From positions 540,001 to 572,000 of the forward strand of contig MGBH01000001.1 in the NCBI GenBank assembly GCA_001790095.1: a stretch of 32,000 nucleotides of DNA, read 5' to 3'. The stretch comes from Candidatus Saccharimonadota bacterium (GTDB lineage Bacteria; Patescibacteriota; Microgenomatia; UBA1406; GWC2-37-13). A program made the position numbers and the translations under genes. Position 1 is the stretch's first letter, and every line of letters starts with the position of its first letter. The notes under the pieces are model-generated. The model searched no databases, was not told the DNA's origin, and saw only the letters and a list, made by a program, of their open reading frames with translations. Shown here one piece after another: positions 8,083 through 32,000 of this stretch.

Positions 8083-8123
8083 CTTATTAATCCGTTAACC
8101 CGTTAATTCATTAATTGAATAAT
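8083..8123. repeat. 8-nt-periodic (N)CGTTAA / TTAAT array in the hisS-prfA spacer
   Basis: Reads ttattaat ccgttaac ccgttaat tcattaat tgaataat. It contains the 15-mer gttaacccgttaatt (8094-8108), which recurs at 11143-11157. Confidence 0.55.
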
Positions 8124-8819
8124 ATGCTCATAAATCCAAACATTGCAATTATTGAGAGCCTTCCCGGAGTCGGGGGAGATGAGTCAAAGATCTGGATGAA
8201 CGATCTACTTATGTCCTACATTAAATACTCCCAAAGACATGGACTAAAAGCCATACCGCTTGATGAAAATATTCTGAAAATATCAGGAGACAATGCCTAT
8301 CAACTATTTAAGCACGAAACAGGCGTACATCGCGTACAACGCATTCCCGATACTGAAAGAAAGGGTCGGATACATACCTCAACTGCAACAATCGTCGTAC
8401 TCCCTCAGATCATCAAATCAGATGTACACATCAATCCATCTGATCTTGAATGGCAGTTTTACCGGTCTGGAGGAAAAGGAGGACAAAATGTAAATAAAGT
8501 CTCAACAGCCGTCAGACTGACCCATAAACCTACAGGTATTATCACAACAGCTAGTCAAGAACGCTACCAAGAAGCAAATCGTAAAATAGCGATGGATCTA
8601 CTTATAAGTAAGCTATACCAACTTGAAGAAGAGAAAAAAAGAGGAATAATGCAGTCATTTGTGAGAAATATCGGAACAGGAGAACGTTCAGACAAGGTAA
8701 GAACTTATAACTTTCCCCAGAACAGGCTGACCGACCACCGCATAAACAAAAGTTTCCACAACCTCGAAGACATCATCTCTCAAGGAAAATGGGATAAGGT
8801 GTTTGAAGCACAAAAATGA
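8124..8819 (+). CDS. prfA: Peptide chain release factor 1 lacking N-terminal domain 1 (about 231 aa)
   Basis: - RF1-type codon-recognition region: [28 protein letters not shown] (PxT tripeptide).
- GGQ motif: [25 protein letters not shown].
- Conserved [15 protein letters not shown].
- The N-terminus ([15 protein letters not shown]) aligns to the start of domain 2 of E. coli RF1.
- The first ATG is at 8124; the ORF track uses TTG 8115.
- hisS ends at 8079, leaving no room for domain 1. Confidence 0.85.
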
Positions 8820-10441: not shown

Positions 10442-10549
10442 ATCACCAAGACTTTGGGCTTGTCCCTCGCAGCTTTAGCGAAGGGGGATTGTAAGAATTA
10501 TCAATTCCCAAAATAGACCTTCCGAATCGGAGGGGAAAGTGAAAAAAAT
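10442..10549 (+). promoter_or_regulatory. Structured 5' leader of rplJ (possible L10-leader-type autoregulatory element)
   Basis: Two GC-rich hairpins stand out in an AT-rich context. The first is 10463-10486 (tccctcgc...gcgaagggg). The second is 10518-10534 (ccttccg aat cggaggg), which contains the only GGAGG in the leader. Confidence 0.4.
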
Positions 10550-28894: not shown

Positions 28895-30172
28895 ATGCGT
28901 ATTAAAAAAGTTGCTGTCATCGGGCTTGGTTATGTCGGGCTCCCGACTTATGTAGCTCTTTTGAAAGCAAAAACATATGAGGTCGTTGGATACACACGGT
29001 CGCAAAAAAAAGTAGATGCTATCAATAAGGGCCAATCACCGATCGAAGATGAGGATGTAATATCTTACTTAAAAAGTAATAAAGTTAAAGCAACCAATAA
29101 ACAGCAAGACTTAAAAGGATGTGATGTCTTTATCATCTGTGTACCTACCCCCGTAAAAGACGACTATGTGCCAGATTATGAACCGGTCATATCCGCAACT
29201 CAACTGGTTGCTCCCTATATAAAAAAGGGGTCACATTATGTACTTGAGTCAACAGTCAATCCAGGAACTTGCGAGGAAATAATTCTGCCCATCCTTGAAA
29301 AAGAAACAGGACTCAAAGCTGGATCTGACTTTAATATCGCACATTGTCCCGAACGCATCAACCCAGGAGACCAAAAGTGGAATATCTACAATATCAATCG
29401 TAATATTGGGTCGCTTTCAAAAAGCCAAAATAAAGAAATCGCTTCGTTTTATCGAACCTTTATAACTAAAGGGCAGGTCAACGAAGTTAACTCACTTAAG
29501 GTTGCCGAAGCTACTAAAATAATTGAAAACACCTTCCGGGATATAAACATAGCTTACGTAAATGAGCTTGCCCAGTCATTTGATATCATGGGCATTGACC
29601 TCCATGAGACATTGAAAGCTTCGTCAAACAAACAGTTTGCGTTTATGCCGCACTACCCCGGTTGTGGAGTAGGGGGTCATTGCATAGCGGTTGACCCATA
29701 TTATTTGATCAGGCGCGCGTCACTTGACGGATTTAATCATCAGTTTTTAAAATATGCCCGCGAGATCAATAATGGCATGCCCGGTTATACCATACAAAGA
29801 TTGCTCCTTGGTCTAAATGATGTCGGACTTAGTCTCAAAGGTACCAAAGTTGCGCTTCTGGGCTTAAGTTATAAACCAGATATTGGAGATATCCGTGAAA
29901 GCCCAAGTCTTATTATTGAAAAAGAACTTAAAAAGCTTGGGGCACAGATAATAGTCTATGATCCTTATGTAAAACGTGCAGAAAAAGATTTGGCAAAAGC
30001 TATCAAGAATGCAAAAGCAATAGTAGTTGCAACAGCACATAAGGAAATTAAAATGGGTCTTGAGAGTTTATTAAAAAAATCAAAAGTTAAGGTGGTCATT
30101 GACGGACGAAACTGTTTAGACAAAGAAAAAATAAAAAAAATGGGGATAGTTTATAAAGGAATAGGAAGATAA
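28895..30172 (+). CDS. NDP-sugar dehydrogenase (UDP-GlcNAc / UDP-ManNAc 6-dehydrogenase family, WbpA/WecC-like)
   Basis: 425-aa ORF with the N-terminal Rossmann motif VAVIGLGYVGLP, a catalytic-Cys region (GCGVGGHCIAVDPYY), and a C-terminal UDP-binding domain (LGLSYKPDIGDIRESP). Confidence 0.85.
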   Translation: MRIKKVAVIGLGYVGLPTYVALLKAKTYEVVGYTRSQKKVDAINKGQSPIEDEDVISYLKSNKVKATNKQQDLKGCDVFIICVPTPVKDDYVPDYEPVISATQLVAPYIKKGSHYVLESTVNPGTCEEIILPILEKETGLKAGSDFNIAHCPERINPGDQKWNIYNINRNIGSLSKSQNKEIASFYRTFITKGQVNEVNSLKVAEATKIIENTFRDINIAYVNELAQSFDIMGIDLHETLKASSNKQFAFMPHYPGCGVGGHCIAVDPYYLIRRASLDGFNHQFLKYAREINNGMPGYTIQRLLLGLNDVGLSLKGTKVALLGLSYKPDIGDIRESPSLIIEKELKKLGAQIIVYDPYVKRAEKDLAKAIKNAKAIVVATAHKEIKMGLESLLKKSKVKVVIDGRNCLDKEKIKKMGIVYKGIGR

Positions 30173-30182
30173 AAATAAAAGT

Positions 30183-30260
30183 TGTCCGTCATTCCCGCGA
30201 AAGCGGGAATCCAGACATAAATTACAAATTTTATAGATCCCGATTTTCATCGGGATGACA
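30183..30260. repeat. Pair of head-to-head hairpin repeat units (TGTC..hairpin..spacer..hairpin..GACA)
   Basis: Unit A is gtcATTCCCGCgaaaGCGGGAATcc (30188-30212). Unit B, inverted, is gATCCCGATtttcATCGGGATgaca (30236-30260). Confidence 0.8.
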
Positions 30261-30263
30261 TAA

Positions 30264-31316
30264 ATGAAAAAACTTGGCATCGGAGTCATAGGTTTAGGAA
30301 GAATATTCCTTCGTCATTATGATGACAGTATCAAACAACTGCCAGAGATAGAACTCGTTGCAGTGTGTGATAATAAAAAAAGTGTACTTAATAAATACAG
30401 GGATGAACTATCTAAAGATAAGACACCCCCACCATCATTTTATACCGACTATCAGCATCTTATTGATGATAAACGTGTTGATGTGGTCACGATAGCTACA
30501 CCTAATGGCCTACATAATATCATGGGTATGGCTGTTGCAGTGGCTCAAAAACACTGCATTATGGAAAAACCTATTTCGCAAAATTTTAAAGATGCGCAAA
30601 GACTGGTCAATGCTTTCAAAAAATCAAAAGGCAAACTTTTTCCTGTTCTACAGGTCAGATATAATCCAGCAGTACAAACACTACGAAGCGCCATAAAAAA
30701 AGGGCTACTGGGTAAGATACTTACTGCTTCAGTTATCATCCGATGGACCCGCCCCCAGGAATATTTTGATGAAAGCGACTGGAAAGGTACTCTCAAGATG
30801 GACGGAGGCACGCTTCTCACACAGGCGATCCATTATGTTGACATAATGCAGTATGTGCTTGGACCGGGTAAATCGGTATTTGGCAAACTGGACAGAGTAG
30901 CGCATAAGATCGAAGCAGAAGATATCGCAAACGCCATCATAGATCTCAAAACAGGTACCAGGGTCAATCTTGAGTTCACCGTCTGCACTTATCCGCACAA
31001 TCTTGAATGTTCTCTTACCGTGCTTGGAGAAAAAGGAACGGTTAAAATAGGAGGAACCGCAATGAATAAATGTGAACTTTGGGAAGTGAAAGACACTCCA
31101 ATGCCATATATTCCCGAAGGGTTGATTCCAAACGTATATGCCGGAGGAATGTATGTGGGATCATGTCCCAACCATAAATCAATCTATGAAAATATGATCA
31201 ATAATCTTGTGTACAAAAAAGAGTCGTTTCTTAAAGCCGAAGATGCACTTGAGTCTTTAAGAATTATAGACGGAATCAAAAAATCAAGCGAGATGAAAAA
31301 AGAAGTAATATTATAA
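30264..31316 (+). CDS. Gfo/Idh/MocA family NAD-dependent oxidoreductase (WbpB-like by context)
   Basis: 350-aa ORF with an N-terminal Rossmann fold (LGIGVIGLGRI...) and the EKP motif (CIMEKPISQNFKDAQRLV). It lies between a sugar dehydrogenase and a WbpD-like acetyltransferase. Confidence 0.8.
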   Translation: MKKLGIGVIGLGRIFLRHYDDSIKQLPEIELVAVCDNKKSVLNKYRDELSKDKTPPPSFYTDYQHLIDDKRVDVVTIATPNGLHNIMGMAVAVAQKHCIMEKPISQNFKDAQRLVNAFKKSKGKLFPVLQVRYNPAVQTLRSAIKKGLLGKILTASVIIRWTRPQEYFDESDWKGTLKMDGGTLLTQAIHYVDIMQYVLGPGKSVFGKLDRVAHKIEAEDIANAIIDLKTGTRVNLEFTVCTYPHNLECSLTVLGEKGTVKIGGTAMNKCELWEVKDTPMPYIPEGLIPNVYAGGMYVGSCPNHKSIYENMINNLVYKKESFLKAEDALESLRIIDGIKKSSEMKKEVIL

Positions 31317-31320
31317 TACT

Positions 31321-31382
31321 ATGTCATCCTGAACTTGTTTCAGGATCAATATGGAAGATGCTGAAATAAATTCAGCATGACA
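31321..31382. repeat. Second pair of head-to-head hairpin repeat units
   Basis: Unit C is atgtcATCCTGAActtgtTTCAGGATc (31321-31347). Unit D, inverted, is gATGCTGAAataaaTTCAGCATgaca (31357-31382). Confidence 0.8.
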
Positions 31383-31392
31383 ATATAAATAT

Positions 31393-31899
31393 ATGAAAAA
31401 ATATTATTGCCATGAATCATCGATAGTTGATAAAAACGTAACCATAGGTGACGAAACTAAGATCTGGCATTTCTCCCATGTATCAAGTGGCGCCAAAATC
31501 GGTAAATCCTGCTCCCTTGGTCAGAACGTATTTATTGGTAACAACGTTACAATAGGAGACAATGTAAAGATCCAAAACAATGTATCAGTCTATGAAGGAG
31601 TGACTCTTGAGAACGATGTATTCTGCGGACCATCGTGTGTATTTACCAATGTGAGACAACCCAGAAGTGAGTTCCCGGTACATAAAAAGTATGACAAAAC
31701 ACTCATTAAAAAAGGAGTGACTATAGGAGCCAATGTCACAATAGTTTGCGGAGTGACTATCGGCAAATACGCATTTATCGGAGCCGGCTCTGTCGTCACC
31801 AAAGATGTTCCCGATTATGCCTTAGTCTATGGCAACCCCGCAAGAGTAAAAGGAAAAGTGGATGAGAAAGGAAAGAAAATTAACACTATGTCATCCTGA
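31393..31899 (+). CDS. wbpD: Hexapeptide-repeat (LbH) N-acetyltransferase, WbpD-like (UDP-2-acetamido-3-amino-2,3-dideoxy-glucuronate N-acetyltransferase family)
   Basis: 168-aa [59 protein letters not shown]...[39 protein letters not shown] closely follows the WbpD-type sequence as I recall it. The last 3 codons and the stop lie inside a repeat unit. Confidence 0.8.
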
Positions 31900-31933
31900 A
31901 CAATAAATGTCATCCCGAACTTGTTTCGGGATC
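31885..31933. repeat. Truncated hairpin unit followed by a complete unit, immediately upstream of the GIY-YIG gene
   Basis: actatgtcatcctgaac (31885-31901) is identical to 31318-31334 but lacks the 3' half of the hairpin. It is followed by atgtcATCCCGAActtgtTTCGGGATc (31907-31933). Confidence 0.8.
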
Positions 31934-31938
31934 TATGT

Positions 31939-32000
31939 ATGACTTATTTCGTATACATTTTGACTAACATAACGAATAGCACTCTCTATATTGGAGTTAC
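31939..32000 (+). CDS. GIY-YIG nuclease family protein (UPF0213-like), N-terminal 20 codons only; runs off the window
   Basis: ATG 31939: MTYFVYILTNITNSTLYIGVT. This is the characteristic YVYIL.....LYIGVT (GIY...YIG) start of small GIY-YIG domain proteins. It is too short to appear in the ORF track. Confidence 0.65.
   Translation, partial: MTYFVYILTNITNSTLYIGV

Follow-up and report, generated by a model that had tools for sequence, protein, structure and literature searches.

The window analysed here, a 32,000-nt stretch of a Candidatus Roizmanbacteria genome (contig MGBH01000001.1, positions 540,001–572,000), carries a group of hairpin units at 30187–31933 that comprises five full units with perfect 8-bp stems (A, B, C, D and F) and one truncated copy (E), as found by reading the sequence and by hairpin scans. 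The hairpins are copies of a known and widespread repeat family, the CGTC-tagged REPs or Ssn-related motifs (SRM), and they lead up to a gene, ssn, for a small GIY-YIG protein. Very probably the units are recognition sites of Ssn, and a cassette of the form SRM(+)-ssn-SRM(-), together with gene-less SRM pairs, has been inserted in a compact surface-sugar operon. The feature is real, and the family has already been described and biochemically characterised; what is new is its occurrence in a genome of the candidate phyla radiation (CPR). The identification itself is routine. An earlier note on this DNA had grouped the six units as one family, and this grouping stands. The units and the start of ssn are arranged as follows.

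30187–30214, stem-loop 30191–30210, plus strand: unit A, CGTC-ATTCCCGC-gaaa-GCGGGAAT-CCAG; in the dehydrogenase/oxidoreductase spacer; an NTS-type SRM (CGTC-1 type)
30236–30260, stem-loop 30237–30256, minus strand: unit B, reading on the minus strand TGTC-ATCCCGAT-gaaa-ATCGGGAT-C; head to head with A
31322–31347, stem-loop 31326–31346, plus strand: unit C, TGTC-ATCCTGAA-cttgt-TTCAGGAT-C; 6 nt after the oxidoreductase stop codon
31357–31382, stem-loop 31358–31378, minus strand: unit D, reading on the minus strand TGTC-ATGCTGAA-tttat-TTCAGCAT-C; head to head with C
31889–31901, plus strand: unit E, truncated 5′ half of a C-type unit (TGTCATCCTGAAC); a direct repeat with F
31908–31933, stem-loop 31912–31932, plus strand: unit F, TGTC-ATCCCGAA-cttgt-TTCGGGAT-C; the left (5′) flank of ssn
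31939–32000, continuing 220 nt past the window to L003:10828, plus strand: ssn, encoding a 93-aa single-domain GIY-YIG protein

The full units share one architecture. Each has an 8-bp stem whose first bases are AT, a 5′ tag directly before it (CGTC in A; TGTC in B, C, D, F and the truncated E) and a C immediately 3′ of it, so that the AT-initiated stem and (T)GTC/GAC(A) flank recognised earlier are present in all of them, with the tag written more exactly as YGTC. The GTC and the 3′ C are kept in 8/8 full units, five in the window and three just past it. The loop measures 4 nt in A and B and 5 nt in C, D and F. A and B, and likewise C and D, stand head to head with their tags outward, which leaves two spacers bounded by (C/T)GTC...GACA, in agreement with the arrangement first proposed. 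C and D together make a heterodimer, for which a single long hairpin is an alternative fold (spacer fold −15.1 kcal/mol, z −5.4), and the DNA fold energy of unit A is −9.0 kcal/mol (z −4.3). The whole 32 kb contains 13 perfect 8-bp hairpins with loops of 3–7 nt, and 5 of these 13 are the units described here, all within 1.75 kb; scanning the window for a GTC tag plus hairpin yielded no further convincing copy.

This anatomy is that of the CGTC-tagged REPs, defined in 2013 (Di Nocera, BMC Genomics, PMC3733652) by a CGTC or TGTC tag, an AT-initiated stem of 8–9 bp, a loop of either 4 or 5 nt and a short tail, CCA; most of them stand as head-to-head dimers. The CGTC-1 and CGTC-2 families have the Neisseria dRS3 and Rickettsia RPE-6 elements among their members, their copy number at genome scale runs from tens to thousands, the first two stem pairs are A-T and T-A, and the dimers of the 5-nt-loop family are heterodimeric (PMC3733652). 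Similarly, the units of the window combine the tag and the 8-bp AT-first stem with 4-nt (A, B) or 5-nt (C, D, F) loops, with head-to-head dimers that are heterodimeric for the 5-nt-loop type and, in A, with the CCA tail; some overlap coding sequence in both cases. They differ in the tail of B, C, D and F, which is C alone and not CCA, and in the enzyme gene that lies adjacent, whereas no dedicated transposase was identified for the CGTC REPs (PMC3733652).

The NTS repeats, generalised as SRM, flank ssnA, whose product is a 94-aa single-domain GIY-YIG protein (Chenal, Nat Commun 2025, PMC11893778). SsnA binds the hairpin solely as single-stranded DNA and in the tagged orientation, cuts a few nucleotides upstream of it and does not bind RNA; by mutagenesis, binding depends critically on the 3′ C and cutting on the three nucleotides that precede the stem, and a change to the palindrome that preserves the hairpin abolishes activity (PMC11893778). 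Ssn homologues show partial cross-specificity only, and in N. meningitidis, where NTS cluster around surface-protein genes, SsnA lowers transformation by NTS-flanked DNA (PMC11893778). With the REPs named in 2013 (PMC3733652) and the Ssn biochemistry of 2025 (PMC11893778), the statement in the earlier note that no mechanistic description of such elements was known is outdated. Unit A, at 30187–30214, is identical to the published NTS consensus CGTCATTCCCGCGMAVGCGGGAATCYRG at 28/28 positions, as it is to an NTS copy beside the gonococcal ssnA gene, and is the sole unit of the window to match that consensus. It also matches exactly the SRM search pattern HGTCWYN(0-2)YYVSBRHN(0-5)WNVSBRGN(0-2)RNCYNB, for which 0.035 matches are expected per shuffled window.

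The partner gene is equally recognisable. The ssn ATG lies 6 nt after the 3′ C of unit F and 7 nt after the end of the F stem-loop, and the ssn stop codon is followed by three further units, D-type (-), C-type (+) and D-type (-), with tags TGTC, CGTC and TGTC. The first of these begins directly after the stop codon, and in the C+D-type pair downstream of ssn the tags again point outward. The 93-aa product matches PF01541 over residues 3–77 (E=4e-19) with no other domain, and NCBIfam has no specific model for it; the Ssn family itself corresponds to CDD model cd10448. BLASTP aligns it without gaps to the 94-aa N. gonorrhoeae SsnA over 89 aa with 46% identity (E=4e-29, against a family threshold of E<1e-10), the catalytic residues Y6, Y17 and E64 being in register, and tblastn finds the N. 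gonorrhoeae ssnA locus at E=4e-19; the nearest solved structures are UPF0213 proteins (E=9e-7). The gonococcal sequence was taken from NZ_CP119140.1, a 2.17-Mb PLSDB 'plasmid' record that is evidently an N. gonorrhoeae chromosome. Nine exact NTS copies accompany ssnA there within 1 kb, and CGTC-tagged hairpins number 16 over about 1.6 kb. From its length, its residues and this NTS context, we infer orthology between the gonococcal protein and the SsnA characterised in meningococci.

The locus thus shares with the Ssn/NTS system (PMC11893778) a single-domain GIY-YIG protein of about 94 aa with Y6, Y17 and E64, hairpins with outward tags on both sides of the gene, the CGTC/TGTC tag, the AT-initiated palindrome and the 3′ C, a unit that equals the NTS consensus and the clustering of units at cell-surface genes. 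It differs from that system in its Patescibacteria (CPR) host, in having four of five full units AT-rich inside and outside the SRM pattern, in placing several stem types around one ssn, and in a cassette that lies inside an operon and supplies the stop codon of a gene. The activity of SsnA was established biochemically; that of the window protein is predicted. GIY-YIG homing endonucleases such as I-TevI and I-BmoI have the same catalytic domain, and their genes likewise behave as small invasive insertions between host genes; they differ in having a separate DNA-binding domain, long asymmetric double-stranded sites and no dispersed hairpin repeats.

Tagged hairpins are common in the flanks of ssn, as the loci of 80 metagenomic relatives of the Ssn protein reveal. 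A tagged 8-bp hairpin lies within 120 nt upstream of ssn in 57/72 loci (79%), within the same distance downstream in 54/73 (74%) and on both sides in 41/65. Orientation is strongly skewed, with 57 plus versus 11 minus units upstream and 55 minus versus 10 plus downstream; upstream units are forward and downstream units inverted, so the tags point outward. The base 3′ of the stem is C in 130/133 ssn-flanking units, and the D-type is the commonest unit immediately 3′ of ssn. Units reach about 6.5 per kb near ssn (an estimate from counts) versus 0.17 per kb at distances above 500 nt. The association was also tested without presupposing pairing: a hairpin of at least 7/8 bp follows 60% of YGTCAT sites near ssn and 7% of distant ones. 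The link to GIY-YIG genes that the earlier note had drawn is therefore borne out, both at this locus and among relatives. Co-clustering of Ssn proteins with the loop type of their flanking units was also considered and set aside as weak, since identity is 62% within the 4-nt-loop class, 58% within the 5-nt-loop class and 55% between the two.

Read-through of the hairpins accounts for a peculiarity of annotated GIY-YIG proteins. The peptide strings that had been read from the units, CHPELVSGS, VIPNLFRD, VIPAKAGIQ and MLK*IQHD, are correct translations, and a literature search for VIPAKAGIQ and the other strings found no match. Some gene callers place the ssn start inside unit F, giving a protein that begins LFRDLCM..., and Ssn homologues carry N-terminal ...CHPDQIFVIPNLFRD... 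and C-terminal DAETSSA/DPETSSG read-throughs. The spurious extensions suggested earlier are thereby confirmed, and hairpin read-through explains them at both the N- and C-termini.

A covariance model trained solely on ssn-flanking units of other organisms (metagenomic relatives) recovers the five full units in the window, scoring 48 bits for F, 43.1 for D, 40.8 for C, 28.1 for B and 18.1 for A, with E-values from 1e-10 (F) to 0.01 and B detected on the minus strand at E=2e-5. The next match in the window has 11 bits (E about 0.6), and nothing else there rises above noise; in the extended locus the model recovers all eight full units in the right orientation. The rplJ-leader hairpin at 10461–10489, proposed earlier as a possible further copy, is not a member of the family, as it scores 6.7 bits (E about 10) and has an imperfect stem that does not begin with AT. 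This hairpin, which lies upstream of the L10 gene and has a TGTC-like start, is probably a leader element, uncalled by Rfam at the gathering threshold.

Pairing is maintained through base changes in the stem, as had been claimed from the window alone. Units C and F differ solely by a paired change, T>C on one arm and A>G on the other. With this Y/R pair left free, the exact C/F 24-mer occurs in at least 120 genome stretches and at least 10 phyla, the hosts among the matches listed including Patescibacteria, Bacteroidota, Sphingomonadales, Treponema, Melainabacteria, Ignavibacteria, Firmicutes, Elusimicrobia, Dependentiae and Rickettsiaceae. Across 135 copies from many phyla the variable pair is Watson-Crick in 134 (105 T-A and 29 C-G, with 1 mixed); in 120 of the copies position −1 holds T or C, and in 127 position +1 holds C. 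Among 63 distinct 5-nt-loop units that flank ssn, 82 cells are changed on both sides versus 22 ± 3.5 in shuffles, and the signal collapses in slid controls. Among 112 units there are 34 distinct stem arms, and the stem positions from 3 to 8 show two or three kinds of Watson-Crick pair; since pairing was a criterion in choosing these ssn-flanking units, their paired percentage is a circular measure. The view that selection acts on structure rather than sequence is too strong, given the exact 24-mer in at least 10 phyla and the loss of SsnA activity when the palindrome is changed and the hairpin kept (PMC11893778). The identical 24-mer in distant phyla implies horizontal movement.

Two observations concern the wider distribution of these repeats. 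Thirty-six viral-contig stretches (IMG/VR, L216–L251) hold the exact C/F 24-mer, and the DNA fetched for them has no ssn homologue. A metagenome contig (L258:3375–3534) follows the present locus up to the third downstream hairpin, which is D-type, and then continues into unrelated sequence; the junction reflects either another D-type copy, at a different place in a related genome, or a chimeric assembly at the repeat.

The host of the units is a co-directional operon, assigned by Pfam, NCBIfam and synteny, in which a DegT aminotransferase after ssn completes a WbpA/B/D/E-like sugar-nucleotide set. The window contains three of its genes, assigned by Pfam/NCBIfam.

28895–30172, plus strand: NDP-sugar dehydrogenase
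30264–31316, plus strand: GFO/IDH/MocA oxidoreductase
31393–31899, plus strand: hexapeptide acetyltransferase

The earlier note placed units in every spacer of the operon. This holds from the sugar dehydrogenase onward, including the ssn/aminotransferase spacer with its three units, and fails for the spacer between the glycosyltransferase and the dehydrogenase. Unit E supplies the last codons of the acetyltransferase gene, M-S-S, and its TGA stop (31885–31899 reads ...N-T-M-S-S-stop), while acetyltransferase orthologues without insertions end 4–5 residues earlier and overlap the ATG of the next gene. As such, insertion of a repeat has rebuilt the end of this gene. A 12-nt repeat, GTCATCCTGAAC, shared by unit E and the downstream C-type unit, was examined as a target-site duplication and is not claimed as evidence. 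Orthologous operons were located via relatives of the aminotransferase (WbpE), and they fall into distinct states.

P0136 contig, WbpE 79% identical: genes overlap or lie at most 16 nt apart, with no room for hairpins
L208, L209 and L210, WbpE 77%: compact, with no ssn and no hairpin at the wbp junctions
L214, WbpE 72%: acetyltransferase and aminotransferase genes overlap
L207, WbpE 76%: a solo NTS-like unit in the acetyltransferase/aminotransferase spacer
L213, WbpE 79%: a solo unit right after the oxidoreductase stop codon
L211, WbpE 80%, the closest: ssn, then one D-type unit, then the aminotransferase

In the compact operons (WbpE 72–79% identical), the spacers measure −4 to 16 nt and contain neither hairpin nor ssn. 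Because these orthologous operons of related Patescibacteria overlap their genes and do without both, the units and the ssn cassette of the window are insertions. Two strains with 99.7% identity (L210:1438–1702 versus L208:1685) differ by a segment of 229 bp, which occurs nowhere else among the loci fetched. It contains two SRMs head to head, one of them with a 37-nt loop, and the 18-bp direct repeat TGTACTTCATTTGACTAT stands at both its boundaries without mismatch. This difference is a recent insertion or a precise excision. Compared with one another, the empty, solo, paired and cassette states of orthologous loci give evidence for movement of the repeats and the cassette.

Further features of these operons were noted alongside. 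In the 4-nt-loop units at 30187–30236 of the window, L207:5956–6000 and L213:4006–4049, conservation extends about 20 nt beyond the 3′ side of the hairpin, as CCAG(G/A)C(T/A)TAA(A)T..CAA; this extension holds a TATAAT-like box, and the copied unit therefore exceeds the hairpin in this lineage. In two relatives, the very junctions of the operon that take up units harbour a different small gene, for a 23S_rRNA_IVP/four-helix-bundle protein (PF05635, 114–120 aa), at L207:5040–5402 and L213:4581–4925. Short terminal inverted repeats particular to each copy enclose it (ATTAGTCATTCG... in L207, AAATTCTAAATC/GATTTAGAATTT in L213), and these PF05635 cassettes look like a second mini-cassette family that targets the gene junctions of this operon. 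Downstream of the aminotransferase, L211:1315–3448 holds an NYN-domain gene and an AbiEi/AbiEii toxin-antitoxin pair where the window genome has a methyltransferase, so that the flank of the wbp-like operon is a variable region. Elsewhere in the window, at 8115–8819, a release-factor open reading frame (PCRF + RF-1) of about 231–234 aa is short for a class-I factor, which might reflect truncation of the call or a frameshift in prfB.

The published biochemistry on homologues suggests how the system would operate. Where DNA becomes single-stranded, in replication, repair or DNA uptake, each unit would fold into its 8-bp hairpin; Ssn, if it binds single-stranded DNA only and cleaves upstream as its homologues do, would bind this hairpin, binding being dependent on both the stem sequence and the C immediately beyond its 3′ end, and would cut the strand that bears the tag, a few nucleotides before YGTC on its 5′ side. 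Since paired units face outward, the cuts would fall at the outer edges and on opposite strands. By analogy, the Ssn of the window would be expected to cut the units described here, the AT-rich types included, and its cleavage may drive the spread of the repeats.

Other explanations of the hairpins can be weighed against these data. Ordinary RNA elements specific to the operon, such as terminators, attenuators or mRNA-stabilising stem-loops that evolved in place and have nothing to do with the nuclease gene, would account for hairpins in the intergenic spacers of a co-directional operon, where they would be transcribed; enterobacterial REP-type hairpins stabilise upstream mRNA (PMC3733652), and two units give terminator-like matches. 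Both of these matches are antisense, however, and an intrinsic terminator is rejected at every unit for want of a sense-strand stem with T-run. The number of terminator-like matches also equals that in shuffles (4 versus 3.6), and Rfam at its gathering threshold reports tRNA alone in the whole window and no match to the units. Moreover, the units occur in both orientations, the same 24-mer is spread over at least 120 genome stretches in many phyla, orthologous operons function without any spacer and the published Ssn binds no RNA (PMC11893778). An origin as RNA elements is highly improbable, although the units may have a secondary RNA-level effect on operon expression. Mobilisation as classical REPs or REPINs by a RAYT, an IS200/IS605-type Y1 HUH transposase, with the GIY-YIG gene a coincidental neighbour, is hardly credible. 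The resemblance is genuine, in that both systems rely on small hairpins that are recognised in single-stranded DNA and whose stem adjoins a directional tetranucleotide tag, on intergenic and clustered copies, inverted dimers that can fold into one long hairpin, and a small enzyme gene flanked by its own hairpins amid many gene-less copies. But the tag of RAYT-associated REPs is GTAG and not CGTC/TGTC, CGTC REPs never flank RAYT genes (PMC3733652), no Y1 transposase domain is among those that Pfam assigns in the window and its flanks, and the ssn association is positional and oriented across 80 independent loci. The enzymes differ as well, a GIY-YIG hydrolytic nuclease compared with an HUH tyrosine transesterase, and for paired SRMs the two cuts would lie on opposite strands and not on one; next to IS200/IS605-type systems, transposition of the SRM system is putative.

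Two alternatives retain Ssn and assign it another role or fewer sites. Ssn could serve the host as a domesticated, non-mobile check on transformation or recombination that cuts exposed or incoming single-stranded DNA at SRMs bracketing surface genes and so limits operon replacement, the repeats spreading by ordinary recombination. The lower transformation by NTS-flanked DNA in meningococci and the position of NTS near surface-protein genes (PMC11893778) would fit this by analogy, as would units that bracket each gene of a surface-polysaccharide pathway and a locus that is fixed and invariant in all sampled Roizmanbacteria populations, with no second copy of this ssn. On the other hand, the junctions of relatives are empty, hold a solo unit or hold an unrelated gene flanked by terminal inverted repeats, which looks like opportunistic insertion and not like a conserved regulatory design, and the 24-mer shared by distant phyla implies horizontal movement. 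A host-serving role is a serious alternative, though rather unlikely. It is less probable still that unit F and the first downstream D-type unit are the only functional partners of Ssn, with A, B, C, D and E as relics or as sites of a different Ssn paralogue. A and B do have 4-nt loops and GC-rich or distinct stems where the ssn-flanking units have 5-nt loops, homologues cross-react in part only (PMC11893778), the Ssn proteins of relatives with 4-nt-loop flanks are slightly more alike than they are to the 5-nt-loop class, and E is plainly truncated. Yet the five full units are perfect, with tag and 3′ C intact and no visible decay, C and D are of the same types as the units directly flanking ssn, and the clustering of proteins by loop type is weak.

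The preferred reading, of all full units as Ssn sites that arrived by insertion, has to be set against several observations that weigh against it. The published SRM pattern does not match units B, C, D and F, as their AT-rich inner stems place GAA/GAT at positions that require S or B. That pattern is a search heuristic and not a biochemical definition, and these four units carry every feature that the published biochemistry found to matter; their position and conservation suggest that Ssn recognises them. AT-rich SRM variants escape the pattern and yet dominate the flanks of ssn in this lineage, and surveys that use it therefore under-count SRMs, since it misses variants dominant in Patescibacteria and several other phyla. 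All copies, 8 full and 1 truncated, are confined to 2.8 kb of the approximately 42 kb examined in this 1.217-Mb genome, and the exact Ssn protein is found solely at this locus in the sampled Roizmanbacteria population. Among the 120 stretches listed for the 24-mer, ssn is present in 4, with a hairpin within 60 nt of the gene in 3, so most copies are dispersed and remote from the nuclease gene. Direct repeats of at least 10 nt flank ssn in 25/59 relatives and are mostly just the repeated hairpins. The boundaries of the 229-bp difference lie 39 and 70 nt outside the tags, where simple cutting at the tags would not place them, and the evidence for mobility consists of presence and absence only.

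A more far-reaching proposal is possible but doubtful at present, namely that Ssn is the long-missing mobilising enzyme of the CGTC REPs, with SRM-ssn-SRM as the autonomous form and SRM pairs as the non-autonomous form. Such elements would have been recently active in Patescibacteria and exchanged between phyla, and would insert at the junctions of compact operons, where they could rebuild gene ends, by a mechanism other than that of IS200/IS605. This mechanism would involve outward-facing cuts on opposite strands and, at some insertions, direct repeats of 12–18 bp. The window Ssn would add a new specificity to the proposed toolbox of enzymes that cut single-stranded DNA. If Ssn mobilises the repeats, they would represent a new class of bacterial mini-transposon; the alternative is a guard against recombination only. 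The four states of the operon (empty, solo hairpin, hairpin pair and ssn cassette), together with the near-identical strains, offer a clean natural experiment on such mobilisation.

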